Below are positions 5,549 through 45,809 of a DNA stretch of 64,000 bases, piece by piece. Within the stretch, counting starts at the first letter, position 1; each line of letters begins with the position of its first letter. Source of the DNA: Squalus acanthias (lineage: Eukaryota). The notes beneath the pieces were generated by a model. That model saw nothing but the letters and a program-made list of their open reading frames with translations. It was not told where the DNA came from and searched no databases. The position numbers and the translations under genes are program-made. The stretch covers positions 156,738,001-156,802,000 of the forward strand of contig CM059431.1 of the NCBI GenBank assembly GCA_030390025.1, in the 5' to 3' direction.

Positions 5549-6694
5549 GGCAGGCTTCGCAAATTCCCCCAGAAACTCCAATAGAGCCATAAAGGGAGTG
5601 ATCTTTGGACTTTTCATACAAACCTGGGATGATGGGACCTCAGTGAAGTGATTTGATGTAAAAACCTAAAGATCACAAGAAGAAAATCTGAGGAAACTAA
5701 TTTTTCTGAATCTTATTGTTGGGAGAGACATTTTTTTTCACAGACAAGCTGCGAGGGGCGTGGCCAGTCAGTGAACGGATCAAGCTGTCTGGGAATTGTT
5801 TGAGACAATGCAAAACTCCCAAACACATTCAAATATGGATCCCCAGGGGCAAACAAAATGCTGGAAATCTAAAAACGATTCAATGACAATATAACTTCGA
5901 TCACACAGTTTCATACCCATTATCCCATCAAAAAAACAATCAACCAGGTATCCAGAGAACCGATTTAAAAGCTCGCCAACAGAAGGACAATAGAGTGAAG
6001 ATTTGGCGCGTAGATAAGGCCGTGTTTTAAATCGTAAAGCGATTAACACTGAGCAAAAACTATCGGAACTGGCAAGCCCGCCTAAAACTAGACAATTGGA
6101 CGAAGCAAGGGTCATTTACATTCAAAAAGGATTCGTTTTAGTAAGGGGTTTTTGAGCGCGAAAAATGAACAATGTAACTTGAAAGCCTGTGCCATAATCT
6201 CTCTCTTTGGACTGACTGGCGACGCGGACACAGCTCTCTCCCTGCTGCAGCAAAACTTACCACAGGCCACGAGGAAGATGACCAGCACGCAAGAAGAAAC
6301 CATAAGGGCCTTCCGGAGTCCCTTTAAACAAAAAGTCTCTAATACCCTGTCAAGGATTCGTTGGTGAGCATTATCCCTGATCTCCTGAACCCAAAAATCC
6401 TAGCCAGATAGTGGGATCTTTGGGAGGGATAAGGTTTTGTTTGATATATTGTCATTTCCCTCGCTTGTACCGTGTGTTCCCTAAATCTGTGTTTCAGTAA
6501 TAAGTGTGTTTCAAGATTGTTACCTCTTTTTCTTTTAATAAAGAAAATTTCTTTCATCAGACCCTGTTTACTGCAATTTTGTTCACAACCCCTAAATAAG
6601 CCCAAAGTCTAGGAACCGGAGGGGTGTTGGAGTGATTCGAACCGCTCACTGTGTCAGAAAGCGAAGGCTGACCCCACATAAGATACTCCTAACA
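5549..6694 (+). repeat. 5' LTR
   Basis: Direct repeat of 12464-13608 (13 mismatches in the first ~152 bp); ends in ACA; AATAAA at 6537-6542; 5' TG mutated to GG. Confidence 0.95.
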
Positions 6695-6697
6695 TAA

Positions 6698-6716
6698 TGG
6701 CGACCGCGGCAGGACT
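6698..6716 (+). promoter_or_regulatory. Primer-binding site complementary to tRNA-Arg(TCG) 3' end
   Basis: TGGCGACCGCGGCAGGACT, 3 nt after the LTR; complements the recalled vertebrate tRNA-Arg-TCG end ...AGTCCTGCCGCGGTCGCCA. Confidence 0.85.
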
Positions 6717-6789: not shown

Positions 6790-8450
6790 TATGGACGCTG
6801 CAGCTGCATGGACTGAGAGGAAGTAATACAATAAGTCTGTGGACAAAGCCATATGGTTGGTCTGCTCCCAGAAACAAATGCAGCATATGGGGAAGCGCAT
6901 TCAGGCTCTCACAGAAGAGTTAAAGGAAGAAAGCCAACTGTCCCGTCCAAGAGCTATATCAGGGGATAGGTTGTTAGCAGAGCTCGGCACAAAAGATCAG
7001 GAACAGTCACAGATGCTGGAGGAACACCGTGCCAGTAAGGGATACCTCCAGTGTCAGGCCACCGAGGCCAAAAGTAGTGAACTGGCATTGCGGGTAGAGA
7101 ACACCCGCCTTGCCAAGCAATTAAGGGAACTCAAAGAGAAGTTAAACGATGTCCAGGCAGCCTATAGAGTAGCCAGTACAAGGGAGTTTGAGGTAGGGGA
7201 CCACGGCCCCTGTCAGAAGCAGATTGAGAGTCTGAACCTTGCTCTGTCGAAGGCAAAAGGCATGCTGTGCCTGATAAGCCCGGGTGCGGCCAGGGCAGAC
7301 CTGGAAGAGCAGGGGGAGACTGTTCGACCACCACCTGTGGCGCCAAGGAGAAGCTTGGTTAGGCAGCAGGAGCTGCAGACAATCTGTGAGGTTGACAGGG
7401 AGTGCACACCAGCACCTTTGGCGCCGAGTCTTGCCTCGGTCTGGCAGCAGGGAGAGGGGGGCGACCCGATGCAGGAGAAGTCGGAGCCAGGGCCAATGTG
7501 CCCAGCACGACAGCAAAAATTCGGCCCGCCCGCCGGTGGTGGAGGTCACGGACCCCTTGAAGGTCAATTCTTGGCTCCCCACGGTACACAACAGCTTAGG
7601 GCTATGGTAAGCCACCTGAGTAAAGTTACCCAAAAGGAAGAACCCCCAGTCCACTTCATGGACGTGGAACAATCAGGGTCCATTAACGAGTGTGACGATG
7701 CCGAAATGGCAAAATTGCTCCTGTTCTGATTAGATTGCAAATTGTACCAGTCACTCTCTACTGAGAGCAAGAGAGGACAAACCGGGTATGCTGCCCTCAG
7801 GGAGGATGTTTTAGAGGCCATGGGAATGAATGAGGGAAGTCCTTTCTCCCGGGTGGAGAAAACAGTGCAGTTCGCAGGGAAGACCCCACAGGCTTTCGCA
7901 GACAGGCTGTGGCCGCTGTACAGGGGTGCTTGTAATGGGGCTCTCGACAGGGCTAACTTGAACAGGGACAAGCTGGCCCACTGGCTCCGTAGCCTAGTGG
8001 CAAACAGCTTGCCACGAGTAAAAGCCAAGGCTGAGCTTTGGTTTGACCCAAGAGATCCCCGGGTCACCGAGGAGGCAGTGGTCAGGCAACTGACCCTAGC
8101 CTACCGGAACGGTAGGGGAGCTGAAGACACCCTACCGAAAGGGAAGGTGCATGAGATAAAGCCCAGTCAGGATAAGAAGGAGTGGCACCAGGAAGGTGGA
8201 AAACATTCCGACACGAAGCGTAATTGCTTCGGATGCGGGAAGAGGGGGCACTGGAGAAAGGACTGTTGAAATCCCTGGAAGGATATGCTAACAAATAATT
8301 CCCCAGCTTTTGCCTCAAAAGTAGAGGCACCGACCTCTTCCCCCACACTAGACACAATAGTAGCGGCCATCAGAGTCCTGTTTGGTGGTCCAGGCAAGTT
8401 AGCTACTGGTGCATTAATCCCATCTGCCCCCCCTAACGCAGACCTATGTC
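6790..8450 (+). pseudogene. gag: gag: coiled-coil N-terminus, capsid-like region, CCHC zinc knuckle
   Basis: ORFs 6839-7729, 7742-8269 and 8285- share one frame, split by stops; CFGCGKRGHWRKDC; 'QFAGKTPQAFADRLW' CA-CTD-like motif; ends approximate. Confidence 0.85.
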
Positions 8451-9081
8451 TGGAACCAGCGCAGCCTGTCTACCTGTGTTCCCCGGGGTACGATGTGAAG
8501 AAGGGGGTGGAGAAAGTGCAGGGGAGATGTTTGGTGGACACCGGAACAGCCAGCACGGTGGTCCATTCAGAAGACCTGAACAATTCACCCAGGTTTAACG
8601 GCGTCCCAACAGTTTAATGGGAATCAAAGGGAACAAGCAGGCTGGGGCAATGTCCAAACCTTTGGACATAGATTTAGGATCCCTCCATACCACGTGGGAG
8701 GGTAACCAAAAGGCCGACAAGTTGGCCAAGCAGGCGACCAGGGAAGGAGAGTTATGGGATCCCTATAAAGCAGGTCCGGTAGCTGCAATCCGAGACAAGG
8801 GAGGCACACAGAGGGTAGATTTGCACCCGGACTTAAAGCAGGTCCAAGCCCAGAATCCCGTCTTTAAGGCCGTCCTGGTAAAGAGAGAGAATGGGGAATC
8901 CCTAGAAGGTCCGTTCAGGGCAGAGGACGAGATTTTTAAAGAGAGTCACTGGCAAGCAGCCAGTAGCCTGGGGAGCCAGCACCAGAAAAATCTGCTGCTG
9001 TTAGAACCCCAGAGAGTCCATGGGTGGGAGATCAAACAATGCAAACTGTTTAAACCTAAAAGGGAACAGCCCCCAAGTTAG
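8450..9081 (+). pseudogene. pol: pro/pol remnant: aspartic protease joined to RNase H C-terminus and integrase ends; RT and IN core missing
   Basis: CLVDTG active site and GIKG flap followed directly by EGNQKADKLAK (RNase H end), then LKQVQAQNP and IKQCKLF; no YxDD or DDE motif. Confidence 0.8.
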
Positions 9082-9841
9082 AAATCCTCAGCCAGCAGCA
9101 GCTGTGGCAGACGCACAAGCTGCAGCGGGAGGGACAGTGTGTTGTCTCACAGGAGAGGTCACTCCACCGATTATGTGGGACTCAAGCACACCCCCAGTGG
9201 CCAGAGCCCTAAGAAGGTCTCCCCGCACACCACAGCAAAGGCTACTGTGGCCACAGGTGTATTTGTTTAGAGGGTCCCACCCAAAGAGGGTTACAACTCG
9301 AAAAAGAGCGCCCAAGAGCAGGGAGCGTTCTAAAGTTGGGGATTCCCAGCCGACAGCCTCCAACAGTGAGGGTTTCACAGCAGAGGTAGTACTGGAAGAA
9401 GAGAGAGGGAAGGGTCCCCCGCCCGCAGCCTCAGGCTGGGAGGAGCCCACAGATATGAACGAGGGCGCTGCAGCCACACAAAAGGGGGTAGTGTGCTGCA
9501 GCACAGGACGCAGCTGGGATGTTAAGATACCCCCAGCGGTTTTGAGGAAGGCCTTTTGGGTCCGGCGGTACAGGCCGCACTACACCAAGGTGTACAGGCC
9601 ATCCAGAGGCCACATAAGGCAGAGACGAAACAGGATTTAACCTGGCCGTCCGGAGACGGGCGGCAAATGTACAGAATTTTCGGTTTTAAGTAATTGTAGA
9701 TTTGGTGGTTATGGTTATCATTAGTTTAGTTGTTTGTAGAGTTGTTTTTAAGTTTAAGGGCTTGATTAATTATCCAGCCAGTGAATCTTTCTGGGACATG
9801 GATATATGTTTTGTGTGTACCCCTGCAGAAAGGACTTCGGG

Positions 9842-12230
9842 ATGAAAATGTTTCTGCTCCTGCTCGCATTGGTAGGGGTGAGCATCGCTGACCGAGGTGA
9901 CGTGGAGGACTCCCACATCTATTGGTGCTCAGGAGTGAGAGCACCAGTCGTTACCGCAGGGGGTGGCGAGCGGGGAGTGGAGGAGCTCGCCATCTACTTC
10001 CACGAGCGAAGCTGGCCAGGGTGGCTGTGGTCCAACTCTACTAAATACTCCAGCCAGCCCGGGTTCACGTACGGGGAGGCCTCCCTCCCATGCCCCAGAA
10101 TACTGGTCGTTGCCACAAGGGTCAGTGTCACCGAGGGGAAGCGTGTGTGCCTTACCTGTAAGGGATGAATTCCCTTGAATAGGTGGTGGTGGCTCAGGAA
10201 GCTGAGCAGGGACGCAGGGGAGCATACAGCCGACTGGGAAAGATTAGGGAACGACACCCACCGGACAATCACAGGGACCCAAGGAGGAGTTAGTGTTTGT
10301 TGGAATAAGTGCTGGAAGTCGGAACAGGAAGTCTATGTTTGTATGTGGGGATCAGAGGAAGCCTGCCCCACAGGGGTATACATCATCTTCCCCAGCCAAT
10401 GGCAAGATGCCGGGGAGGGGATAGGGTGGGATTCTAGCCTGCATGGTTGCGTGGTCCCACACATTCCGGTCCCAGTTATTGCCACTGAACTCGTGGCACA
10501 CACCCGAAAGCCCCTACCCACGACCCAGGTACCGAAAACCCTGGAAGAAAAGTGCCCTACCACCACCATGGGACCAGAGAATGGGTTAGTCCTAGTACCA
10601 ACCGAAAAGGTACTATACCAGGGGGTACACTATGCAGTAGCTTCAGTAATATTAAACCTTACCGAGGTATACTTACCTGAGTGGTGTCCTATGGAGACGG
10701 AGCAGCTGTACCAGGCCCTGCTAAAGGAAATGTTTAGGAAATTTTACGAATTTGATTTTGCCAATATAACAAACTAGAGCTATACAGAATACACCCTGAG
10801 AACACTGTGGGCACGGGTAGACAAAGAAGGGGAGCCTGGAGTGATGTCTTCAATGCCTATAGTACAGGGCCCTCTATTATAAATAGCCTGGATGACATAG
10901 AATTACAGATACAGATAAATGGTTTAAGAACCCAGTTAAAAAAGATCCTGATGGAAGGGAACACATTGGTAGGCTCAGAGCTACATGAGGATCAAGCTAT
11001 GACGTTTCATTTAAAGGAAATTATTGCAGAATTGGAAAGGTATGCCAAAACAGTAAATGCACACATACAGGAGGATAGGAATGCATCGGATCAGGCTGCA
11101 CAGAATGAGGTGTGTGTGCTGTACGGGGCATGGTTGCTGGGCGAGGGCCGTAGAAACCTGGAGGATTTAAAGCAAGGTCCTGGATCAGCAACAAGCACCT
11201 TGCAGCCCTCCACCCGGTTAGTAATACGATTAGCCCACGCCAATTTCGTCTAGCCTCTGACGCCTACCCTGTCCCAATAGATTGTGGGAGTTCAATTCAC
11301 ACTATCATGTGGATAGTAGTGAGAATGGCGGTCATTAGTGGGACAGCCCGACCCGTACCGGAATACAGGGTGAAGAACATTGGAGTCATTCAAGGGGGTG
11401 CACACATCCGTTTTACAGCGGTCCCACCTTTTGTCATCAAGTGGGAGCACGCCATGACAGGTACTGACCTCTCCGGGTGCCGGAGCCGGGGTTAACACAT
11501 AATACTGTGTCCCCAGCACTTGAATGCCTATTCCAAACCACAGTGCGGTTTAAAGCTGCTGGCGCACGACCTATCAATTGTACCATGGAGGTGATGGCAC
11601 ACGACCATGTTTCCCCACAGGTAGCCTATATAGTGGGTGGGACATATTGTGTCACCACAGTTGCGTCCCACTACCAGCATGGACACTTCTGGTGTCCGGT
11701 AAGTGACAGCAGTTTCTGCTTTAAACCCGAGGCAGAAGTTCAAGTGGCCCAGGAACGGATTGTCCCCATACCTGAAACCTCCACTTTTCACCTCACTGTA
11801 ACAGAAAACATCACCAACCTGCAAAAGTATGTGACTTACTTTTGATATAAAATTCCCCTTCTACCCGAACATTTTACAATCCTACTTAAAGCTGTAGAGA
11901 TTTCACAAACAATTTCTACAACCTGGAACAGAAAACAGTTGAAATAGTGGCAGAGATTTTGGATATAGTAGTGCCACCCTGGTGGGATATTTTCGAGAAT
12001 ATAGAGGTGCCTTCCTGGATCAGGATGGCTTCCCATCTTTTGTGGTCTGCCAGCTCGGGATAGTTCTCTACCTGCTGTGTACAAAGTGCAGGGGAAGGGA
12101 CGGGCAGCTCCGCTCCAGACACGAAGGGACTTGGAAGTGCATCAAAATAAAGGCTATGGCCAGAGATGCAACGAAACTTGAATTTTCTCTTTCAATAAAT
12201 AATTGTATGTGTGTTGTGTCATTTTTATGA
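9842..12230 (+). pseudogene. env: env: signal peptide, Ig-like domain, furin site, F-type fusion ectodomain, TM anchor
   Basis: MKMFLLLLALVGVSIA; VSVTEGKRVCLTC..WWW..EQEVYVC; RQRR/GAWSDVFNAYS; heptad; Cys-rich DLSGC, INCTMEV, YCVTT, SFCF; hydrophobic segment ~12030-12080; stops and frameshifts. Confidence 0.85.
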
Positions 12231-12454
12231 TGTGTATGATGTGATTTTTTCCAAGCTGTGCAGGGGTGTCGGACCCTCTCCGTGCTTGGATGTGAAATAA
12301 AGATTGATTCTTACCTGTATGTACCTGAAACACCACTTTCAGAAGGGGAATGAATGTTTGGGTCTTTAGTTGAAGTAATACAGGGGAAGGTTTGTTTTCG
12401 GGGATCGGAAATTTTGCTCACCTGTTAATGATACTAATTCAGTGTTAGTATCAC

Positions 12455-12463
12455 AGTGGGGGA
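12455..12463 (+). promoter_or_regulatory. Polypurine tract
   Basis: AGTGGGGGA immediately before the 3' LTR TGTAGG. Confidence 0.8.
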
Positions 12464-13608
12464 TGTAGGCTTCGCAAAATCCCCCAGAAACTCGAACAGA
12501 GCCCTAAAGGGAGTGTTTTTTGGACTTTTCGTACAAACTTGGGATGATGGGACCACAGTGAAGTGATTTGATGTAAAAACCTAAAGATCACAAGAAGAAA
12601 ACCTGAGGAAACTGATTTTTTTGAATCTTATTGTTGGGAGAGACATTTTTTTTCACTGACAAGCTGCGAGGGGCGTGGCTGGTAGTGAACGGATCAAGCT
12701 GTCTGGGAATTGTTTGAGACAATGCAAAACTCACAAACACATTCAAATATGGATCCCCAGGGGCAAACAAAATGCTGGAAATCTAAAAACGATTCAATGA
12801 CAATAGAACTTCGATCACACAGTTTCATAGCCATTATCCCATCAAAAAAACAATTCACCAGGTATCCAGAGAACCGATTTAAAAGCCCGCCAACAGAAGG
12901 ACAATAGAGTGAAGATTTAGCGCATAGATAAGGCCGTGTTTTAAACTGGAAAGCGATTAACACTAAGCAGAAACCATCGGAACTGGCAAGCCCGCCTAAA
13001 ACTAGACAGTTGGACGAAGAAAGGGTCATTTACATTCAAAAAGGAATTCGTTTTAGTAAGGGGTCTTTGAGCGCGAAAAGGAAACAGTATAATTTGAAAG
13101 CCTGTGCCATAATCTCTCTCTTTGGACTGACTGGCGACGCGGACACAGCTCTCTCCCTGCTCCAGCAAAACTTACCAGAGGCCACGAAGAAGAGGAACAG
13201 CACGCAAGAAGAAACCATAAGGGCATTCCGTAGTCCTTTTGAACAAAAAGACTCTGATATCCTGTCAAGGATTCGTTGGTGAGCATTATCCCTGATCTCC
13301 TGAAACCAAAAACCTAGCCAGATAGTGGAATCTTTGGGAGGGATAATGTTTTGTTTGATATATTGTCATTTCCCTCGCTTGTACCGTGTGTTCCCCGAAT
13401 CTGTGTTTAAGTAATAAGTGTGTTTCAAGTTTGTTACCTTTTTTTCTTTTAATAAAGTAAATTTCTTTCATCAGAATCTGTTTACTGCAATTTTGTTCAC
13501 AACCCCTAAATAAGCCCATAGTCTAGGAACCGGAGGGGTGTTGGAGTGATTCGAACCGCTCACTGTGTCAGAAAGCGAAGGCTGACCCAACTTAAGATAC
13601 TCCTTACA
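12464..13608 (+). repeat. 3' LTR
   Basis: TGT...ACA termini; AATAAA at 13451-13456. Confidence 0.95.
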
Positions 13609-28199: not shown

Positions 28200-31100
28200 C
28201 GGACGATGATCTGAGATCCCAGGTTATATTGCACAGTGTATCACGATCATACCAGGTGTGCATTGGTTTCACCGTGTATCACGGTGCTACCTGCTGTATA
28301 TAGGTTTCCACAGTATATCAGGAAACTGTCAGTTGTGGATGGGGCTTCAGAGTGTATCAGGATAGTGAAAGGTGTTTATGGGGTTTCACGGTGTATCAGG
28401 ATACTTACAGGTGTTTAGGGGGATTCAAAGTACATCAGGATCCTGCAAGGTATTCATGCGGTTTCGCAATATATCGGGATCTGCCAGGTGAATATGACGT
28501 TACAACGTACATCATGATCCTGCAAGATATGGATGCGGTTTCACTGTATATCAGAATATGCCAGGTGCGGGTGGGCTTTCAAAGCCTACCGGGATCCTGC
28601 CAGGTGTGTATGGGGTTTCACATTTTGTCGGGATCATATCAGGCATCTGCGGGCTGAAAACTGTATGAGGATCCTGGAAGGTGTGTATGCGGTTTCAGAT
28701 TGTAACAGGATTCTAAGAAATATATGTGGAGTTTTAAATTATATCATGATCGTGCAATATGTTTAAGGGGTTTTGCAGTATACCGGAATCCTGCCAGGTG
28801 TGTATTTGGTATCAACAGTGTATAGGAATCGGGCCATGTGCGTCTGGGGTTTCACAGTGTATCCGGATCCTACCAGGTGTGTATGAGATTTTACCCTGTA
28901 TTTGGATCCTACCAGGTGTGTATGGGGTTTCAGAGTGTATCAGGATCCTGCCAGGTGTGTATGGGATTTCACAGTGAAGCAGGATCCTGCCAGGTGTGTA
29001 TGGGTATTTAAAGGGCATCAGGATTCTGCCAGGTGTGTATGGCATTGCACACTGTATCAGGATCCTGCTAGGTGTGTATGTGGTTTCGCAGTGTATAAGG
29101 ATACTGACAAGTGTTTATGGGGTTTCAAAGTACATCAGAATCTTGCAAGGTATGCATGTGGTTTCACAATACATCGGGATCTGCATCGTGAGTATGGGGC
29201 TACAAAAAACATCAGGATCCTGCAAGGTATTTAGGCTGTCTCACTGTATATCGGAATATGCCAGGTGCGTGTGGCCTTTCAAAGCTTATGACTGCTGTTA
29301 CGTTGGAAGTTCCAAGATTTTGACCCAGCGATGATGACGCATCGGCGATATACTTCTAAGTCAGGTTGCTGTGTGATTTGGAGGGGTACTTGGAGGTGGT
29401 TGTGTTCCCATGCGCCTTCTGCCCTTTCCCTTCTAGGTGAAAGCTTTCGCGGGTTTGCGAGGTGCTGTCGAAGAAGCCTTGGCGAGTTGCTGCAGTGAAT
29501 CTTGTAGATGGTACACACTGCAGCCACGGTATGCCGGTGGTGGAGGGAGTGAATGTTCAAGGTAGTGGATGGGATCCCAATCAAGAGGGCTGCTTTGTCT
29601 TGGATGTTCTCGAGCTTCTTGAGTGTTGTTGGAGCTACACTCATCCACGCAAGTGGAGAGTATTCCATCACAATCCTTACTTGTTCCTTTAAATATTTGA
29701 AAGGCTTTGGGGAGTCTTTGCCACAAGTTCACAGATTTCACAGTGCAGCAGGATGCTCTCAGGCGTGTATGGGGTTTCACAATGTATCGGGATCCTGCCA
29801 GGTCTGTAAGGGCATTTTTGTATATCGGGATCCTGCCAGGTGTGTTTGGTGTTTGACAGTGTATCAGGATCCTGCCAGGTGTGTATGGGGTTTGACAGTT
29901 TATCGGGATCTTGCCAGGGGTGTATGGGGTTTGCCAGTGTATCGGGATGCTGCCAGGTGTGTAAGGGTTTCTCATTGTTTCAGGAACCTGCCAGGTGTGA
30001 ATGTATTTCAAAGCATATCAGGCTCCTGCAAAGAATATACGAGTTTTCACATTTTGTCAGTATCATGTCAGGTATTTAAGGCTTTAACAGTGTATCACGA
30101 TCCTGCAAGTTGTGTATAGGTATTCGCAATTAATCAGGATTCTGTTAGTGATGTTCATGGAGTCACAGATTATAAGGATCCTTCCAGGTGTGTTTCAGAT
30201 TTTGTCGAGATTCTGTGAAATATATATATGGGGTATAAATTAAATCATGATCCTGCCACATGTTTAAGCGGTTATACAGTATATTGGCAATCATGTTAGG
30301 TGTGTATTTGGTTCCAAGAGGATTGGGATCGTGCCATGTATGTCTATGGTTTCACAGTGTAACAGAATCCTAACTAAAACCAGGGGTCAGAGTCTAAGGA
30401 TAAAGGGGAAGCCATTTAAGACTGAGATGAGGAGGAACTTCTTCACCCAGAGAGTGGTGAATCTGTGGAATTCTCTACCACAGAGGGTTGTTGAGGCCAG
30501 TTCGCTAAATATATTCAAAAGGGTGTTAGATATAATACTCACAACTCGGGGGATCAAGGGGAATGGCGAGAAAGCAGGAATGGGCTACTGAGGTAGCATG
30601 TTCAGCCATGAACGCATTAAATGGCGGTGGAGGCTCGAAGGACCGAATGGTCCACTCCTGCACCTGTTTTCTATGTTTCTATGTTTCTAACAGAAATGTA
30701 CGGGGTTTCACAGTGAAACAGGATCCGAACATCAATGTACGGGCTGTCACAGTGTAACAGGAAGCTAACAGGTGTGTATGTGGCTCAAAGCTATTCCAGG
30801 ATCCTGCAAGATAGGCATGTGATTTCACAATATATCACGATACTGCCTGGTGTCGATTGGGTTCCACTTTGTATTGGTTACTGCTAGGTTTGTATTGTTG
30901 TTCAAAGTGCATCGAAATCCCGCCAGGTGTTTATGGTGTTCCACAGTGTAACAGGATCCTGACAGGTATGTAAGGGTTTTAACAATGTATCAGGATCCTG
31001 CCCGGTGTGTATGGGGTTTCACAATGTATTCGGATTCTGGCATGGTGTGCTTGGTGGATCAGAGTGTATCGGTGTCCTCTCAGGTGTTCATGAGTTTTAA

Positions 31101-31490
31101 CATTGTATCTGAATCCTGCCAGGTGTGTATGGTGTTTCATAGTGTATCGGGATCCTGCCAGGTGTGTATGGGGATTCACAGCGTGTCACGATCCTGCCAG
31201 GTGTTGATGCGATTTCACAGTGTATCAGGATACTGCCAGGTGTGTATGAAATTTCACAGTGTAGCAGGATCCTTCCCGGTGTGTATGGAGTTTCACAATG
31301 TATGGGATCCTGACAGTTGATAATTGGGTTGCAAAGAACATCTGGATTCTGCAAGGTATGTATGCGGTTTCACTTTATCTCGTGAAGTGCCAGTTGCCTG
31401 TGGGCTTTCAAAGCGTATCATGATCCTGACAGAAATGTATGGGGTTTCTCATTTTGTCGTTATCATGTCAGGTATCTCCGGGTTTAATAG
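28200..31490. repeat. 39-bp minisatellite array (same family as 2090-2795), interrupted by LINE pieces
   Basis: Same consensus; insertions at ~29290-29730 (second-family LINE, minus strand) and ~30375-30690 (CR1 3' end). Confidence 0.93.
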
Positions 31491-33465: not shown

Positions 33466-35800
33466 GGGATGGAGGCAACAATCGTGAGAGTGAGTTAAGC
33501 AATTGGGAGTAGAGGCCGTCAAAGTGCCGCGGTTTTAATATCGAGAAAGGAGGAGAACTCCTGAACTTATTCGCTCCACATTCAGTTAAATATTTGTTTA
33601 AAAGAAAGTGATATGTTGGTGACGCTCTGCAGACGTTTCTTTCACGATCGCCGGTTAGATGGATCGAGTTAACTAGAACTTCAGTAGTCACAGACAGTTT
33701 ACCAGAATAAGCAAAAGGAATGCCACGGTTGAACCAAGGTTGAGTTTAAATCTTGACAGAAGGAAAAAACGTCAATTCTCAAAATTTATTGTATCATTTA
33801 GAGTATAATTTACCTCACTGGCATAGTTAAGAATTAACAGTCTCAGATCAGTCGGAATCTATAACAGAAGTACGAGAGACTGCAGACACTGCTTAAGATT
33901 TAATGGATTGAATTTAAATACTGGCGGATATAGCTGTTCAGCAAAAAGAGTAAACTCACTGGATGTCTCTGCGGTTCTTTCATATCCGCGAGCTCTTTCT
34001 TCTTGTAGCCGTGGATTTAGATCTTCATTCACTGTGTGTGGGGCTGACCTCACTGTAAGTATCTACGCTGAGCAGAGTTTCTGGAGGAGCAATTTCCTGT
34101 TGGCTCTGATTAGAACAAGAATATGATTAGATATAAAAGGGCTTACTTTTCCGTTTCTGAGCTGCCCGGCCACAGATTTCCTCAGCCTGTGCAACAACGG
34201 GCACTGTTACTTGGGGATACCAAAGCGACGAGGCACAACATATACCGTAGATTTAAAGCATAATGCCGATGCTAATAGCAAAAGCGAAAACAACAAATGC
34301 AAGGAAGTTGTTTGATACGATGGTTTTACTAAAGCTAGAGTCGATATGATGCCCAAAAGCTTATATTGACTTGAAGAGATCAATCGCTTGTATCATCGGG
34401 CTGAGGGAAGCTTTAACGTAAAATTCACAAATATCTGACGAGACATCTCTGAGCAGAGGTGAAGAGCGATCGCTGCACTATTAGGCAAAGGACATCGGAG
34501 CAGAATCATGAAATGTAAATCCCGTAGACGTAGCAAAGCTGGACACACAGGTTCATTTCGCTACCAATGATTCAGATTTTAATTGATTCCTGAACCCAAA
34601 TTCCAGTGTCAAGAAAGGGGGAACCGGGAAACAAACCGGAGAGTGGCGGGCGATACAGAATAAGATTGATGATTGAAGTGACCATTGAAATGTAGTTAAC
34701 AGTCAGGGTATAGAGGCGGGGATGCAGATACAATGCTAGATTTCAGATTCGAGACGATGGTACAAATTCAAGGTCAAGGTTGGGGTTAGAGTTGAAGAGG
34801 TAGCTGCAGTCTAAGTGATGGGAATGGAGGGGAGGGAGATGGTCAAGGGATTATTTAGTGACTCGCCCCACAGGATGAATCCTAATTCTTGCAAAATAAC
34901 GTAAAGGTCTATGATTAAAGCTGGGCTCAAAGTTACTCTGGAGAACAAACATTGAGCATGAAGGAGGACCGATCTGAAAACAAATCTTCCTGAATATCTT
35001 CAATTAAATTCCAGTGCTTCCAGTAAAACTGATATTCCAGAATATCGTAGGACAGTGGCTGTTGGTGATGAACACGGAAGTAGACCAAATTCCAGTTTCA
35101 AAGCTGTGGTGATTCCGATGCATAGAGTTGCCTCCGCATTAGATTCGGGCTGAAATCGGACTAAATTAGAGTCTGAGAGGCACCCGAGCGGAAAATAGGT
35201 AAGCAAGTAGAAATTTCAGCAATCATCCTTTTCCCTCATGTATAACATCTCAGAGGAAGTGGTGATCCATGTTACCATTGCGCAGTGCAATTCGCCTATT
35301 TCAGAAAAGAAAGGGCGCGAAAGCAGAAAAACTGCTTATATTTAAACAATGGAATTCCTGTCAATGCTACAGTAGGTTAAGAATGGTCCTGTTGCTTTCA
35401 GGTCAGACATATCTCATATTCTACCCGAGGGAATAGATTCATATGATTCTGATTTGCACGGAAACCGTCCACCGATCCTTCAATAGCTTCAGGAATTCTA
35501 GCCGAATACAATTCCGTATCTTGGGATTGTTGAGTTTCAGCGTCTGTCGACAAAGTCAGTCCAACTCCAGTAATTTCAGCCCCTGTAAAATATAAGTGGA
35601 ACAAAAAATTTCGGAGTAGATGTAATAAACGAGGATACTTTGGAAAATGTATTAGAAATCTGTTGGACTGCTGAAAACAATTCCTTAATACGAGGAGGGA
35701 GCGGCAAATAATTAAAAATGATTGTGAATCTATCTATCTGACTGTCTTTCTGCCTGGCCCGCTGTTTTGCTGTCTGTCGATCAATCTATATATTATCTAT

Positions 35801-36048
35801 GTTGGCATCCGGGAATGCACAGAACACCTCGAGTCTATTCGCTGGGAGCAAGCGCAAGTCAAGTGCAAGCAGTGCAAGGAGCGCACATCAATCCAAGCAC
35901 GCCACCCACCCGCCTGTTGAAATACCATCTGCCCCACCGGTGACAGAGACTGTAGGTCGCACATTGGACTCATCTGTCACCGGAGGACAATTTTTTAACG
36001 TGGAAGCAAGGCATCCTCGTTTGCGAGGTTCTGCCTAAAAAGACGAAG
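35801..36048 (+). mobile_element. RTE-type LINE 3' end (unit 1 copy)
   Basis: IRE..EHLES.RWEQ..VK....CPT.DRDCRSHIGLICH C2H2 tail. Confidence 0.8.
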
Positions 36049-36053
36049 ATAAT

Positions 36054-36817
36054 GGCCCATAAATTAAACATCGATGGTTCCCGCGGGGGTAAGGATTCCC
36101 CGCGATATCGCACTCCGCGCCTACCTTTTTGTTTGGGGCCCACACGAACTTCAGTTTCAGAGCCTCTCACTGTTGCAACCGTGCAGTGCTTGCGTGTCCC
36201 AGAGGCGCAAATAGTTCGTGCGAGCTCTTGGATCACGTGATACAGTTAGAGCCAATGGCAGCCCACCATCTTTCATTCATAGTTTTGACAGCAAGAGCTG
36301 TCAAAGCTATGAATACTACAAACCCCCAAAAGAACAGCTAAACCACAATTACATTTAAAAAAAAGCCATCACATTAATAAAATAAGTATAGGTAAATAAA
36401 TTAACCACTTTAAACAAAAAATAAAATTTTTGAAAAAATTTAAAATCTTTTTAAAAGTTACAAAAATAAAGTTACCTTTCTTTAAAGTCTCTAAAAAAGA
36501 TAAACCTGTTGAAATTTTTTTTAAATAACACTAAATTAACTACTTACCTTATTAAAAGGGGGTCCTACGCCTGCTTTCTTTATGTGTAAAATCTTCACCA
36601 CTTACCTGCGCGTTCAAACCTGAAAAAAAAACTATGTGCACTGCGTGCGCACAACCTGTAGCGCGCACGCGGTTCACTTAGGAACCACCCCCTTTGCAAT
36701 GCACGAAGTTCTGGTTTCCCGCGCTTGCGCAATGCATGCAGGAAACCGGCAATTCGGGATCTAATACACGAGAGCACACAGTGCGTACTCTCGCGTATTA
36801 GGTTTCATTTTCGGGCC
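36054..36817. mobile_element. MITE (PIF/Harbinger-like) with AAT/ATT 3-bp TSD
   Basis: GGCCC...GGGCC termini; absent from the homologous site in unit 2 (~40100). Confidence 0.85.
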
Positions 36818-39800
36818 ATTATCTATAAAGCCATCTGTCTATATGTTTTGCCTATTTATGGATTAGCTAATCTGTATTCATGGTAATGGATTACACGGCT
36901 GGTTACTGTATGTATTTGATGCATCATCATAAGCACACTGCAGGGTGAAGGCTAAAAGCACAATCAATGAATTTACCGACAATTGCCTATATATTGGTTC
37001 CTGCTGGCTGGCGCGAACTGGGCACCAGTCAATGGGTGTAATTATGACTTTCTTATTGTGAGATAAATTAAAAAGTGCTGAAATGATGGGCAGTCGCTTT
37101 TATACCTCTCTCGATTTTGATATCCATTGAAAACGCTCGCTAGTACATTCGATTACCTATCGCCCATTTTACACCATCACACGACGGCACATTACCGCCG
37201 AGAACGATCACTGTGCCGCAAGGTGTAGTCCTGAGACCCACCCAATATTTTGCCTCTGGTCTCGATTAATGCATACCGAGGAGGTGCAGACACCTGCTAA
37301 GTCTCAAAAGGCAGATTGCGAAGTGATCATGATTTTAATGTCGACTTCTCAATGGGCGACTGAAAGAGTTTAATGCGTTCTGGATGGAGGATCGACCAGC
37401 TGAGGGCGCGATATAAGTGGTCGGAAGAGAGAGAGAGTGGGACGGGTGGATGAGCGAGGGAGGCAAACATCGGGAGAGTGAAAGAGGCAATCGAGAATAA
37501 TGTCCGGCAAGTGCCAATGGTTTTAATTTCGTGCTAGAAGAGGAACACACGAAATTAATGGCTCCACATTCGGTTATTAAATTGGTGCTAGAAGGGAAAC
37601 TCCTGAAATTAATGGCTCCACATTCGGTTAATTATTTTCTGAAACTTATCTTGTGTTGGCGGTCTGCAGAAGACCCTTTAACGATCGCCGGTTCGATGGA
37701 TCGAGTTAACCGGAACCTCAGGCGTCAAAGAAAGTTTACCGGAGATAGCAAAAGGAAAGCCATGGTTGAACCGAGATTGATTGTGAGATTTGACAGAAGG
37801 ACAAGAGGTGATCTCAGAACCTTTATGTAGTATTTCGAGCACTATTTACCTCACATATAAAGATGTGAGTTGACAGTCTCCGATAAGCAGAAATATACAA
37901 CTGAATGACAAGAGAAAGATAACATTGCTTGAGGTTTACTGGATTGAATTTAATGACTGGCGGACATATCTATTAAGCACAAAGATAAATCTCACCGGAT
38001 GTTTGTGTGGTTCTGTCGTATCCGCCGCCTCCTTTTTCTTGCAGACGTGGATGTAGATCTTCATTCACTGTGTGTGTGGCGCTGACCTCACTGTAAATAT
38101 CCGTGCTGAGCAGAGTTTTTATCGGAGCATTTTCCTGTTGGCTCTGATTATAACAAGAATATGATTAGATATAAAAGGGCTGATTTTCGGTTTCTGAGCT
38201 GGCCAAGACACAGATTTCCCCAGCCCGTGCAACAAAGGGCACTGATACTTTGAGAATCCCAAGGGAGTAGGTACAACATATACCGTACATTTAAATCGTA
38301 AGGCGGATCTTCATTGTAAAAGCGAAGAAAACAAATGCAGGAAAGATGATGATAAGATGATTTTACTAAAACTGGAGTCGATATGATCCCCAAAAGATTA
38401 TTTTGTCTTGAAGAGATCAATCGCTTGGATCATCGGTCTGAGGGAAGTTTTAATGTAAAATTCACAAATATTAACGAGACATCTCTGAGCAGAGGTGAAG
38501 AGCGATCGCTGCACTAAAAGGAAAAGTACATCGGAGCAGAATCCGAAATGGAAATCCCGTAGACGTAGCAAAGCTGGACACATAGGTTAATTTCGCTTCC
38601 AACGAATCAGAGTTTAAATTAATGCCTGACCCCAAATTCCAGTGTCAAGAAAGGTATAACCGGGAAACAAACCGGAGAGTGCGGGGGGGGGGGGGGGGCG
38701 AAACGGAATAAGATTGATGATTGAAGTGACCATTGAAATGTAGTTAACAGTCAGGGTACAGAGGCGGGGATGCAGATAAAATACCAGAGTTCAGATTCGA
38801 GACGAAGGTACAAATTCAATGTCAGAGTTGGGGTTAGAGTTGAAGAGGTAGCTGCAGTCTAAGTGTTGGGAATGGAGGGGAGGGAGATGTCCAAAGGATT
38901 ATTTCGTGACTCGCCCCACAGGATAAATCCTAATTCTTGCAAAATAATGTAAAGGTCTATGATTAAAGCTGGGCTCAAAGTTACACTGGAGAACAAACAT
39001 TGTGCATGAAGGAGGACCGATCTGAAAACAAATCTTCCTTTCATTTTCAATTACATTCCAGAGCTTCCAGTAAAACTGATATTGATGAATATCGACGGGC
39101 AGTGACTTTTAGTGATGAACACGGAAGTCGACCAAATTCCAGTTTCAGAGCAGTGGTGATTCCGATGCAAAGAGTTGCCTCCTTATTAGATTCGGGCAGA
39201 AATCGGACAAAATTAGTGTCTGAGCGGTTCACCCAGGCGGAAAATAGGTAAACAAGTAGAAATTTCAGCTATCATCCTTTTCCCTCATGAATAATATCTC
39301 AGAGGGAGTGGTGGTCCATGTTACCATTGCGCAGTGCAATTCGCCTATTTCAGAAAAGAAAGGACGCGAAAGCAGAAAAAGTGCTTATATTTAAACAATA
39401 GAAGTCTTGTCAATGCTACAGTAGGTTAAGAAAGTTCCAGTTCCTTTCAGGTCAGACATACGTCATATTCTACCCGAGTGAATAGATTCATATGATTCTG
39501 ATTTGCAACGATACCGTCCACCGATCATTCAATAGCTTCAGGAATTCTAGCTGGATACAATTCCGTATCTTGGGAATGTTGAGTTTCAGCGTCTGTCGAC
39601 GAAGTTAGTCCAACTCCAGTAATATCATCCGCTGTAAAAGACAAGTGGACAAAAATATCGGGGTAGTTGTAATAAACGAGGATACTTTGGAAAATGTACT
39701 TAGAAATGTCTTGGCCTGCACCAAAACAATTCCTTAAAACGAGGAGCGAACGTCAAATAATTAATAATCATTATGAATCTATCTGTCTGACTGTCTTTCT

Positions 39801-39849
39801 GCCTGTCTCGCTGTTCAGCTGTCCATCGATCAATCTATATATTATCTAT

Positions 39850-40097
39850 GTTGGCATCCGGGAAGGCGCTGAGCACCTCGCGTCTCTTCGCCGGGAGCAA
39901 GCGGAAGTCAAGCGCAAGTAGCGCAAGGAGCGCACGTCAACCCAAGCACCCCACCCACCCGCCCGCTCACCCATGGACTGCCCCACCTGTAACAGAGACT
40001 GTAGGTCCCACATTGGACTTATCAGTCACCTGAGAACTCATTTTTAACGTGGAAGCAAGGCATCCTCGTATGCGAGGGTCTGCCGAAGAAGACAAAG
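39850..40097 (+). mobile_element. RTE-type LINE 3' end (unit 2 copy)
   Basis: CPTCNRDCRSHIGLISHLRTHF; 11-bp TSD ATATTATCTAT at 39839-39849 and 40098-40108. Confidence 0.88.
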
Positions 40098-43000
40098 ATA
40101 TTATCTATAAATCCATCTGTCTATATGGTTAGACTATTTATGGATTAGCTCATCTATATTCTGGGTAAAGGAATACACGGCTGGTTACTGTATGTAGTCG
40201 ATGCATCATCATAAGCAAACAGCAGCGTGAAGGCTTAAAACACAAGTAGCGAATTTAACGACAATTGCCTAGAAATTGGTTTGTGCTGGCTGGCGCGAAC
40301 TGGGCACGGGTCAATGGCTGTAATTATGACTTTCTTATTGTGAGATAAATTAAAACGTGCTGAAGTGAACGGGCAGCCGCTTTTACATCCTTCTTGATTT
40401 TGATTTCCGTTGACTACGTTCGCTAGTAATTTCGATTCGCTATCGCCCATTTTACATCACCACACGACGCCACATTACCGCCGAGAAGGATCACGGTGCC
40501 GCAAGGTGTAGTCTTGAGACCCAGCCGATATTTTGCCTCTGGCCTCGTTTACAGCAAACCGGGGAGGAGCCGACACCTGCTGAGTCTCTACAGGCAGATT
40601 GCGAAGTGACCATGATTTTAATGTCGACTTCTCTATGGGACGACTGGGAGAGTTCAACGCGTTCGGGCTGGAGGGTCGAGCAGATAAGGGCGAGATAGAA
40701 GTGGTCAGCAGAAAGAGAGAGTGGGACCGGTAGAAGAGCGAGGGAGGATAACATCGGTAGCGTGAAAGAGGCAATCGAGATTAATGTCCGGCAATATACA
40801 GTGGTTTTAATTTGGTGCTAGGAGAGGAAGTCATGAAATTAATGGCTCCACTTTCGGCTAATCATTTTCTGAAACTTATCTTGTGTTAGCGGTCAGCAGA
40901 ATACCCGTGAACGATCTCGGGTTCGATGGATTGAGTTAACCAGAACCTAAGACGTCAAAGACATTTTACCGGAGAGAGCGAACGGACAGCCATCGCTGAA
41001 CGGAGGTTGAGTGTCAGATTTGACAGAAGGACAAGACCTCATTTCAGAAGCTTTATGTAGCATTTCGAATGTAATTTATCTCACTGTTATAGATATGCGT
41101 TAACAGTCTCAGATAAGCAGGAATACAAATCTGAATAACAAGAGAAACAAAACATTGCTTGAGGTTTACTGGATTGAATTTAATGACTGGCGGACATATC
41201 TATTAAGCACAAAGATAAATCTCACAGGATTTTTGTGCTGTTCTGTCATATCCGCCGCCTCCTTTTTCTTGCAACCATGGATGTAGATCTTCATTCACTG
41301 TGTGTGTGAGGCTGACCTCACTGTAATTAACCATGCTGAGCAGAGTTTTTGACGTAGCATTTTTTTGTTGTCTCTGATTATAACAAGAATATGATTAGAT
41401 GTAAAAGGACTGACTTTTCGGGTTCTGAGCTGGCCAAGCCACAGATTTCCCCAGCCTGTGCAACAACCGGCACTGATACTTTGAGATTCACAAGGATCCT
41501 AACAGCAAAAGCAAAATTCAACAAGTGCGGGGAAGTTGTTTGATAAGTTAATTTTACTAAAACTACAGTCGATATGATCCTATAAAGCGTATTTTGTCTC
41601 GACGAGAGCAATCGATTGTATCATCGGGCTGAGGGAAGTTTGAATGTAAAATTCACAAATATCTGACGAGACATCTCTGAGCAGAGGTGAAGAGCGATCG
41701 CTGCAATAAAAGGAAAAGTACATCGGAGCAGAATCATGAAATGTAAATCCCGTAGACGTAGCAAAGCTGGACACATAGATTCATTCCGCTTCCAATGATT
41801 CAGAGTTTAAATTGATGCCTGATCCCGAATTCAAGTGTCAAGAAAGGCGGCATCGGGAAACAATTCAGAGAGTGACGGGCGATACGGAATAAGATTGATT
41901 ATTGAAGTGACCATTGAAATGCGGTTAACAGTCAGGCTATAGAGGCGGGGATGCAGATATAATGCAAGAGTTCAGATTCGAGACGAAGTTACAAATTCAA
42001 GGTCAGAGTTGGGTTAGTGTTCAAGAGGTAGCTGCAGTCTAAGTGATGGGAATGGAGGGGAGGGAGATGTCCAAGGGATTATTCAGTTACTCGCCCCACA
42101 GGATAAATCCTAATTCTTCCAAAAAAAGGGACAGATCTGTGATTAATGCTGGACTCAAAGCTAATCTGGACAACCAACTTCGAGTATGAAGGAGGGCCGA
42201 TCTGAAGACAGATCTTCCTGAATATCTTCAATTACATTCAAGAGCTTCCAGTAAAACTGATATTCCTGAATATCGAAGGGCAGTGGCTGTTGATGATGAA
42301 CACGGAAGTCGCACAAATGCCACTTTTAGAGCAGTGGTGATTCCGATGCACGCAGTTGCCTCCGCATTATTTGCAGGGCAGAAATCAGCCAAAATTAGCG
42401 TCTGAGATGCACCCGAGCGGAAAATAGGTAAGGAAGTAGAAATTTCAGCAATCATCCTTTTCCCTCATGTATAATACCTCAGAGGGAGTGGTGGTCCATG
42501 TTACAATTGCGCACTGCAATTAGCCTATTTCAGAAAAGAAAGGGCGCGAAAGCAGAAAAAGTGCTTATATTTAAACAATAGAAGTCTAGTCAATGCTACA
42601 GTTGGTTAAGAAAGTTCCTGTTCCATTCAGTTCAGAGATACCTCATATTCTACCAGAGCGAATAGATTTTTATGATTCTGATTTGCACGGATAACATCCA
42701 CCGATCCTTCAATATCTTCAGGAATTCTTTCCGGATACAATTCAGTTTCGTTTGATTGTTGAGTTTCAGCGTCTGTCGACAAAGTTCGTCCAATTCCAGT
42801 AATATAATCGCCTGAAAAATACAAGTGGAACAAAAATTATAGGAGTAAGTGTAATAAACGAGGATACTTTGGAAAATGTACTTATAAATCTCTTGGACTG
42901 CAACAAAGCAATTTAGTAAAACGAGGAGGGAACGTCAAATAATTAATAATCATGAGTAATATATCTGTCTGACTGTCTTTCTGCCTGTCTCGCTGTTCAG

Positions 43001-45809
43001 CGGTCTATCGATCAATGTATTTATTACCTATAAAGCTATCTGTCTATATGATTACTCTATTTATGGATTAGCTAATCTGTATTCTGGTTTAATGGAATAC
43101 ACGGCAGGTTACTGTATGCAGTCGCTGCATCAGCATAAGCAAACTGCAGGGTGAAGGTTGAACGCACAATCAGTGAATTTACTGACAAATGCATATGAAT
43201 TGATTCGTGCTCGCTGGCGCGAACTGGGCACGGGTCAATGGTTGTAATTGTAACTTTCTTATTGTGAGAAAAAGTTAAAACGTGCTGAAGTGAATGGGCA
43301 GCCGCTTTTACATCTCTCTCGATTTTGATAACCATTGTCTACGTTCGCTAGTACTTTCTATTCGCTATCGCTCATTTTACACCATCACACGAAGCCACAG
43401 TACCGCCGAGAAAGATCCCTGTGCCGTAAGGGGTAGGCCCACCCGATATTGGGCGTCTGACCTCATTTACAGCAGAGTGGGGAGATGCCGAGACATTCAG
43501 CGCCTCCACAGGCAGCTTGAGAAGTGAACATGATTTTAATGTCGAATTCTCAATGGGGCGACTGGGAGAGTTCAATGTTTTCGGGATGAATGGTCGACCA
43601 GATGAGGGCGAGATAGAAGTTGTCGGCAGAGAGAGAGTGAGACCGGTAGAAGAGCGAGGGAGGCAAACATCGGGAGAGTGAAAGAGGAAATCGAGATTAA
43701 TGGCCGGCAATGTGCTGATTTAATTTGGAGCTAGGAGGGGAAAACCTGAAAATATTGGCTCCACATTCGGGTAATTATTTTCTGAAACGTATCTTGTGTT
43801 GGCGGTCTGCAGAAGACCCTTTAACGATCGCCTGTTCATGGATCGAGTTAACCAGAACCTCAGGCATCAAACACATTTTACCGGAGAGAGCGAACGGACA
43901 GCCATGGTTGAATCGAGATTCAGTGTGAGATTTGACAGAAGGACCAGACGTAATTTTAGAACATTTATGTAGCATTTCGAGTACAATTTACCTCACTGTT
44001 ATAGATGTGAGTTAACAGTCTCAGAAAAGTAGGAATACAAAACAGAATCACAAGAGAAAGAAAACATTGCTTGAGGTTTACTGTATTGAATTGAATGACT
44101 GGCGGATATATCTATTAATCACAAAGAGAAATCTCACCTGATGTTTGTGCGGTTCTGTCATATCCGCCGCCTCCTTTTTCTTGCAGCCATGGATGTAGAT
44201 CTTCATTCACTGTGTGGGTGGGGCTGACCTCACTGTAATTATCCGTGCTGAGCAGAATATTTGTAGGAACATTTTCCTGTTGGCTCTGATTATAACAAGA
44301 ATATGATTAGATATAAAAGGTCTGACTTTTCGGTTTCTGAGCTGGCTAAGCTTCAATTTTCCCCAGCCAGTGCCATAACGGTCACTGTTATTTGCGTGTC
44401 TCCAGGGCGGTGTTACCGTAGACATAAATCGTGTTGCGGATCCTAATAGCAAATGCAAAAGCAACAAATGCATAAATATTGTTTTTTAATATGATTTAAT
44501 TAAAACTGCAGTTGATGTGATTAGAAGCTTATTTTTTCTTGAAGCGAGCAATCGTTTCTATCCTGCTTTCAGAGAGTTTTTAACGTAAAATTCAGAAACA
44601 TCTGACGAGTCAGCTCTGAACAGAGGTGAGCAGGAATCACTACATAAACAGGAACAGGACATCGGATGCATATTCAAGACATTTAAACCCCATAGGCGTA
44701 GGAAAGCTGGGCACATAGGTACATTTCGGTTCAAATGATTCTGATTAAAGCTGGGCTAAATAAATACGTGACCCCAAATTCTGGAACAAAGAAAGGTGGA
44801 ACCGGAAAGCAAGTCGAAGAGTGTCTGGCGAAACGGAGTCAGATTAATGATTGGATGAAAGGCAAATAACATTTAGGGTATAGAGGCGAGGCGCAGGTAA
44901 AATGCGAGGATTGTGACTGGAGGCGCCGGTATAACTGCAAGGTAAGAGCTCGGGTTAGAAATGTGGAGGCAGATAAAGTCTAAGTATTTGCTATGGATAG
45001 GAGGGTCATGACAAAGAGATAATTAAGTTACTGGGCCCACAGGATGTATCCGAATTCTGGCAAAAGAAGGAATAGAACTATGATTGAGGCTTTCCTCAAA
45101 GTTATTTGAACAACAAACATTGAGCATTAAGGAGCACTGATCTGAAAACATATCTTCCTGAATAAGTTTAATTATATTCCAGAGCTGCCAGTAAAACCGA
45201 TATTGCTGAATTTCGAAGTGCAGTGACTGGTAGTGATGAACACGAAAGGGAACCAAATACGACTTTCAGAGGAGTGGTGATTCCGATACACGGAGCTGTC
45301 TCCGCATTAGTTTCGGGGCTATAATCGGTCAAAATTAGCGTATGAGAGGCACTCAAGCGGACATTAGGTAAGAAAGTGGAAATCTCAGCAATCATGCTTT
45401 TCCGTCATGCAAAATATCGCAGAGGGAGCGGTGGCCCATGTTAACATTGCACAGTTCAATTGCCTACTTCAGAAAAGAAAGAACGAGAAATGTAAAAACT
45501 GCTTACATTTAAGCAATTGAAGTCTAGTCAATGCTACCACAGGTTATGATAGGTCCTGTTCCACTTATTTTAGACATACCTCATATTCTACCGGAGTCAA
45601 AAGATCTTTATGATTCTGATTTGCACTGATACCGTCCACAGATCCTTCAATAGCTTTAGGTAATCCTTCACGATACAATTCGATATCTTTGGATAGATGA
45701 GTGTCAGCCTCTGTCGACACAGTTCGTCCAACCCCAGTAATAACATTCACTGTAAAGTACAAGTGGAACAAAACATTTCGGAATAGTTGAAGTAAACGAG
45801 GATACTTTA

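Follow-up and report, generated by a model that had tools for sequence, protein, structure and literature searches.

An endogenous retrovirus (ERV) of Squalus acanthias raises the question of why a retroviral envelope protein (Env) should begin with what looks like an immunoglobulin (Ig) domain, and what such a domain might do there. The window analyzed here is the whole 64,000-nucleotide stretch of contig CM059431.1 from 156,738,001 to 156,802,000 (forward strand, assembly GCA_030390025.1), and all positions below are counted within it. An earlier note, made from the letters alone, had read the start of the env frame as a captured Ig-like domain, possibly host-derived, followed by a Thr/Pro-rich stalk in front of a viral fusogen. 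We find that the head is predicted to fold as an Ig domain, that it is old and conserved, and that it probably serves as a receptor-binding module.

The frame from 9842 opens with the hydrophobic, signal-peptide-like MKMFLLLLALVGVSIA, followed by the B-strand Cys motif VSVTEGKRVCLTC (10121-10159), a single TGA (10166-10168), WWW (10184-10192), and EQEVYVC (10322-10342), all as the note had listed them. Cys106 (10157) and Cys167 (10340) are the predicted B–F pair, and the B-strand Cys, the C-strand Trp, and the F-strand D/E-x-G-x-Y-x-C motif lie at normal Ig spacing. The Cys/Trp/Cys pattern, on whose conservation the note had staked its reading, holds throughout the family: Cys103, Cys106, Trp115-117, Tyr165, and Cys167 are each kept in 30/30 copies. 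The Gly of the F-strand motif is present in 29 of the 30, the window being the sole departure, and the window's stop site is a sense codon in 28. Relatives from other elasmobranchs (P0005 and P0012) have the full D-x-G-x-Y-x-C. The head also carries additional conserved cysteines (29, 84, 103, 153, 175, and 203) and a Trp-rich surface.

Our assignment of the fold is made because of an alignment-based AlphaFold2 (AF2) model, whose core (predicted local distance difference test (pLDDT) 63-78) has B, C, D, E, F, and G-like strands in the two-sheet topology of an Ig sandwich. When this model was submitted to a VIA structure search, 49 of the best 50 rows were Ig-superfamily chains, aligned with model residues 76-163. 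The best named ESM Atlas matches are likewise Ig families (score ≤0.90), and Pfam Ig_3 matches the head weakly (E 0.046 for the window, 0.014 for a sister copy, and 0.014-0.078 across family copies). A sister head, L067, is near-textbook Ig (Ig_3 E 0.00046); all eight matches of the sister-head profile are Ig-superfamily chains (IgLON5, contactin-2, and LILRA; E 0.03-1.1), and the UniRef name of a bamboo-shark relative, P0015, is “Ig-like domain-containing protein.” Other searches were less informative. A single-sequence model of the head reached a pLDDT of 37, and neither Foldseek nor VIA gave anything useful with it; with the better model, Foldseek returned nothing at E <0.001 from the PDB or its viral library and no retroviral Env among the viral-library matches listed. 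Searching PDB sequences with P0033, P0015, or the window protein found nothing significant (P0015 drew weak rows of antibody heavy-chain variable domains), and profile A4 had no match across the Ig part. Another profile, A1, was discarded because the zinc fingers of a chimeric record, P0003, had contaminated it.

Upstream of the predicted domain, Env residues 21-50 (window 9902-9990; residues 24-74 of P0012) resemble the F–G hairpin of an Ig V domain, with E-D-x-x-x-Y-x-C followed by a G-x-G-T-like turn. This stretch matches an antibody heavy chain weakly (per-domain E 42), has no Pfam support, and does not cross-score in the profile hidden Markov model (HMM) comparison described below; as judged from its residues, it is possibly the remnant of a second domain and possibly a chance resemblance.

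The Ig-stalk-fusogen layout that the note proposed is borne out by the AF2 model and VIA rows for the head, by a profile match of the core to foamy virus Env, and by the composition of the linker. Pro and Thr account for 38% of residues 204-243, 12% of the Ig part, and 12% of the next 68 residues. The stalk thus exists, but not quite where it had been placed: KPLPTTQVPKT begins at 10508, past the end of the noted feature (10480), and the “PTTT” assigned to it lies after the first Cys that every relative seen shares in its fusogen core.

Selection on the head was gauged by the ratio of nonsynonymous to synonymous substitution rates (dN/dS), calculated by the Nei-Gojobori method between L014, as a shared reference, and eight natural copies from diverged subfamilies. 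In the Ig domain dN/dS is 0.11-0.24, with bootstrap intervals below 1 in 8/8 pairs; it is 0.10-0.18 in the fusion core (the seven pairs covering the core), and the values for the rest of env are given in Table 1. Synonymous divergence (dS) in these pairs reaches ∼1.5. Purifying selection on the head has therefore acted over a long period, during which the head was functional for the virus. Within the young family the corresponding within-family ratio (pN/pS) is ∼0.5 in all four env regions, as is expected for decay after insertion mixed with viral history. Orthologous heads, 55-71% identical, are found in sawshark, skate, and whale shark records. The Ig head is an old, clade-wide, and conserved feature and not a chimera peculiar to the element in the window.

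The note's further suggestion, a captured and possibly host-derived domain, is not borne out by any identifiable host gene. The head is 8-25% identical to all Ig chains, the I-set and V-set scores lie within 1 Z of each other, and no closest host Ig protein emerged from sequence or genome searches. Word-based and full HMMER searches with the head returned ERV-derived records only, and a genome search with L067, the most canonical sister head, found, besides L067, a second ERV head and a single match that is weak and broken. We infer that a cellular Ig-superfamily domain was acquired long ago and has diverged beyond assignment.

The relatives show that the N-terminal slot is exchangeable. HMMER over 1.8 billion representatives gave 49 matches, and the N termini differ among the full or near-full relatives. 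Heads of the Cys-Trp-Cys kind occur in P0015 and in two frog records, P0021 and P0040. The head of P0033 is Cys-less and V-type (V-set E 0.045; weak PDB rows for SLAMF5, CEACAM1/6, and TIGIT, E 0.2-1.6). P0014, P0026, and P0034, from Mustelus and sawshark records, bear an unrelated Cys-rich head of ∼120 residues with no Pfam match, and in P0042 the signal peptide is joined straight to the core. All of these head-swapped and headless Envs sit on one F-core tree (24 rows, unrooted, four of them less than half filled), in which both main groups include Ig-like heads, the Cys-rich heads fall into a single clade, and P0042 and P0033 pair at 100/100. In the Squalus genome itself, Env of this clade is represented by five or more additional divergent families (L051-L073, L089-L094), with differing Ig-like heads and mostly broken copies. 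A few public gene models (P0003, P0006, P0007, and P0038) join Env pieces to host genes (zinc finger, Niban, cadherin-related, and F-box); these are probably annotation chimeras, with real read-through transcripts possible.

The kinship of the Ig-like heads was gauged mainly with profile HMMs and shuffled sequences. For 6/6 heads of the window family, an HMM of the sister heads scores above at least 297 of 300 shuffles, and for P0021 above 298 of 300; in the other direction, the score of the window-family HMM is reached by 0 of 300 shuffles for L067, 0 for P0021, and 1 for P0015. The same HMM does not beat shuffles for L054, L057, L061, L064, P0040, or P0033, and hhalign among the heads gave nothing significant. 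The controls (Cys-rich heads, N-terminal extension, and core) do not score. These comparisons point to weak homology among the heads; they may go back to a single old capture that was followed by swaps, or to more than one capture.

The fusogen behind the head is likely of class Ib, foamy/F-like, as judged by profile matching. The best PDB matches of the core profile are foamy virus Env (8rm1, E 0.0012; 8rm0, E 0.006), over ∼160 positions of the foamy Env transmembrane subunit (TM), and one relative matches Baculo_F (E 0.0011); Pfam Fusion_gly (PF00523) matched none of 34 members. A TM of the gamma type was not recognized: there was no retroviral TM Pfam match, and P0002 has no CX6CC by eye. 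In the core, an RQRR cleavage motif occupies 10819-10830 and a transmembrane stretch lies at ∼12025-12080. With its F-like Env, R-x-x-R site, fusion peptide, and transmembrane segment, the layout resembles that seen in Env snippets of lokiretroviruses (Loki). Reverse transcriptase (RT) motifs nevertheless separate the two. By eye, the RT of L035 has LPQGFHNSP and PTVA, as in snakehead retrovirus (SnRV), in place of the CPFG(Y/L)-x-NSP-type and LSRWPM-type motifs of the Loki rows shown, and because it shares the SnRV motifs without those of Loki, the element is likely an SnRV-like class III retrovirus. The label “lokiretrovirus” was dropped for the same reason. Dual RNase H (RT_RNaseH_2 plus RNase_H in L035) is common to all retroviruses. 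The sister Ig-headed families have the same RT type, 45-61% identical, in the 3/5 sister-family stretches from which an RT was obtained.

We think it probable, from the model and the comparisons together, that the head binds a receptor from a flexible stalk and so supplies a class Ib fusogen with an attachment module of its own. Furin-type cleavage at RQRR would leave the head in the surface subunit, tied to the fusion core. The head would then bind a cell-surface protein, as do the receptor modules that coronavirus spike carries at its N terminus and foamy Env as an insertion, and would take the place of the attachment protein that is separate in paramyxo- and pneumoviruses. Its slot would have been refilled or emptied in sister lineages after an old uptake from the cellular Ig superfamily. 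An N-terminal head on a variable stalk agrees both with the receptor-binding domain (RBD) and proline-rich region of gamma-type Env and with the class Ib scaffold model. The proposal has its limits: the Pfam Ig_3 matches score 14-16 bits (21 for the best sister head) versus a curated cut-off of 30, the design has a known parallel in gamma-type Env, the donor is lost, and the receptor role is putative.

Among viral immune mimics, Ig domains are the most common kind, and the head could instead be a decoy or shield that mimics the ligand of a host inhibitory receptor or masks the core, with entry left to the core. The best rows from the viral structure library are indeed poxvirus and herpesvirus Ig proteins (e.g. 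a CD200-like protein, E 0.026), the P0033 head is weakly like SLAM, CEACAM, and TIGIT V domains, and headless P0042 suggests that a head is dispensable in some lineages. A mimic should stay recognizably host-like, however, whereas this head is 8-25% identical to every Ig chain and has no host match, so that an immune role seems unlikely. We give slightly less credence to a structural cap that stabilizes the prefusion trimer or aids folding without a ligand. Conservation of the head equals that of the core, and the extra cysteines and Trp-rich surface suggest tight packing, but the fastest-evolving, Pro/Thr-rich segment separates head from core, and some relatives have an unrelated head or none. 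That the head is a non-Ig viral β-sandwich with a convergent Cys/Trp pattern is improbable, since the motif, Pfam, Atlas features, sister-head profile, and structure search all indicate Ig. Finally, the window family could have taken up a host Ig exon recently and carried it passively since. Nothing beyond the Ig fold itself was found in favor of this, although ERV capture of host mRNA has a precedent (crocodilian ERVs took up nectin3 in place of env; PMC4299795, in its accessible part). This reading is largely refuted and very improbable, given purifying selection to dS 1.5, the orthologous heads in three other elasmobranchs, and the failure to find a close host protein.

Beyond the receptor-module proposal for this family, we raise only tentatively a broader scheme. 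In sharks, skates, and frogs, the foamy/F-type fusogen of SnRV-like class III retroviruses may carry an N-terminal head slot that was repeatedly filled from host Ig genes (I-set-like or SLAM/CEACAM-like V), replaced by a Cys-rich head, or emptied; this would be a second, independent instance of an Ig receptor head plus Pro-rich linker. If so, the relatives would form a natural series showing how an F scaffold without a head acquires a means of attachment. Env has hardly been characterized in the class III retroviruses of fish and amphibians. If the receptor-module reading is correct, a retrovirus with an Ig module at the N terminus of its Env joins the class Ib scaffold model, alongside bare F, spike with its N-terminal module, and foamy Env with an inserted one. 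The question of whether retroviral Ig-like receptor domains originate in host genes would then gain a second, much older test case, for which headless and head-swapped relatives are natural controls. The data also suggest that F-like Env extends past lokiretroviruses and foamy viruses to lineages with SnRV-like pol, a point of relevance to how retroviral env arose. This analysis adds the probable assignment to the SnRV-like group, the link to foamy Env, the series of exchanged heads, and the parallel with gamma-type Env.

Table 1. Parts of the Ig-headed element in window coordinates.
Feature	Position	Strand	Basis
5' long terminal repeat (LTR), portion alignable with 3' LTR	5552..6694	+	1076/1141 aligned bases identical to 12467-13608 (94%)
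Primer-binding site, complement of tRNA-Arg(TCG) 3' end	6698..6715	+	Sequence match
gag, N-terminal coiled-coil-like stretch and one CCHC knuckle	6827..8269	+	Translation; zf-CCHC E 0.0055
Deleted pol: protease fragment, RNase H end, integrase C-terminal extension	8270..9640	+	Translation
Env signal peptide (predicted)	9842..9889	+	Hydrophobic N terminus by reading translation
Env N-terminal extension, conserved, residues 17-87, Cys29 and Cys84	9890..10102	+	dN/dS 0.17-0.25; pLDDT mostly <50; no Pfam match
Ig-fold domain (predicted), residues 88-185	10103..10396	+	Structurally aligned core 10115-10378; stop 10166-10168 in window copy
Post-Ig segment, Cys203 and Pro/Thr-rich stalk	10397..10552	+	Composition; fastest-evolving, dN/dS 0.24-0.58
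Fusogen core, likely class Ib (foamy/F-like)	10553..12141	+	Profile match to foamy virus Env
3' LTR	12351..13608	+	Start inferred: polypurine run 12341-12350 then TG; CA at end

The element that carries this Env is highly abundant: at least 40 DNA matches were scored, 40/40 at ≥96%, and at least 150 protein-level matches, 150/150 at ≥91%. Its named relatives come from sawshark, skate, whale shark, bamboo shark, and Mustelus. Contig sets from related organisms, guessed to be RNA, cover the env region at 88-99% likeness but are not able to show transcription. The window's fusogen core carries several stops and frameshifts, and because env is broken in several places this copy is dead; gag has a single stop (7727-7729), its coiled coil having been judged by eye. 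The tRNA-Arg primer site recurs with 0-1 changes in 8/8 further copies; its complement is present at 422 genomic places, and ARAGORN called tRNA-Arg(tcg) at 2/2 loci scanned. Hart et al., in their 1996 paper on the SnRV genome, reportedly describe a tRNA-Arg primer and a coiled-coil Gag. On contig C26, 38.9-42.2 Mb, long tandem arrays (period ∼1623 bases) hold tRNA-Arg(TCG) and tRNA-Ser genes. The window pol is without RT and integrase core, whereas two natural copies (L035 and L036) retain protease, RT, tether, RNase H, and integrase. Among the best matches (L001-L030), 21/30 loci are colinear with the window in the pol-deleted form, which is likely a non-autonomous subfamily mobilized in trans. 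This form (window 8270-9031) is the commoner one among the best matches, yet env is kept. At 9005-9640 a low-complexity extension of ∼200 residues runs past the integrase C-terminal domain and is open in the window and in both natural copies. Degenerate 39-base tandem arrays (2084-2795 and 28216-31460) and four copies of a repeat unit of ∼3-4 kb (33600-45800) are unrelated to the Env finding.

Our literature search turned up no F-like or class III Env described as having an Ig head, although subscription papers and supplements could contain one. The word “immunoglobulin” is absent from the main text of PMC7947760, PMC13524379, PMC9040795, PMC11089739, and PMC5210030, and “shark” and “fish” from that of 10.1101/2024.03.17.585361. 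In the accessible parts of the sources, a survey of anamniote Env addresses the gamma type (10.1101/2021.11.23.469661), PMC12193657 gives the general layout of SnRV only, and SnRV-like ERVs are reported from elephant shark (PMC4977317).

Among known viruses, the shark element shares with SnRV the RT motifs LDISNGFWSI, LPQGFH, L-x-QYVDD, PTVA, and NPKK. SnRV has a 136-residue tail and accessory open reading frames, whereas the shark Env tail is short, and SnRV Env itself is not among the nameable matches. With Loki, as its accessible text describes it (PMC7947760), the element shares LTR-gag-pol-env with dual RNase H and an Env with signal peptide, R-x-x-R, fusion peptide, coiled coil, Cys-rich C-terminal half, and transmembrane segment, a comparison made on C-terminal snippets of Loki Env. 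It differs from Loki in its SnRV-matching RT, and the same text does not report Loki in the cartilaginous fishes screened. Like cellular I-set and V-set Ig domains (NCAM2, titin, CD8, TREM2, IgLON5, and contactin-2), the head has the predicted fold, B-Cys, C-Trp, and D/E-x-G-x-Y-x-C; unlike them, it has extra cysteines and W-x-x-W/F in the E–F corner, and at its low identity no family stands out.

The note's view that this is not a standard Env design is half right. As set out in the accessible text of 10.1101/2024.03.17.585361, gamma-type Env (MLV, FeLV, and Env-Pb1) has an N-terminal IgV-like RBD-C followed by a proline-rich region, and an alpharetrovirus-like Env, Env-Dbi, has captured a SIRP IgV domain. 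The order of N-terminal Ig-like domain, Pro-rich linker, and rest of Env, with heads swapped between lineages, is common to these and the shark element. However, the shark core is foamy/F-like, its head has a predicted B–F disulfide that RBD-C lacks, and the SIRP head of Env-Dbi is still alignable to its donor, whereas the shark head is not. The other half of the design is closest to class Ib fusogens. Foamy Env, by the accessible portion of PMC11468914, has a core in common with paramyxo- and pneumovirus F, a scaffold that takes receptor modules N-terminally or between subunits, and it is the best PDB sequence match of the shark core. The Ig head is distinct from the Ig-fold domain II of this scaffold, because the headless relative keeps the whole core. 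Where the foamy RBD is an insertion of ∼330 residues between subunits, the shark module would be an Ig domain of ∼100 residues at the N terminus, as in coronavirus spike.
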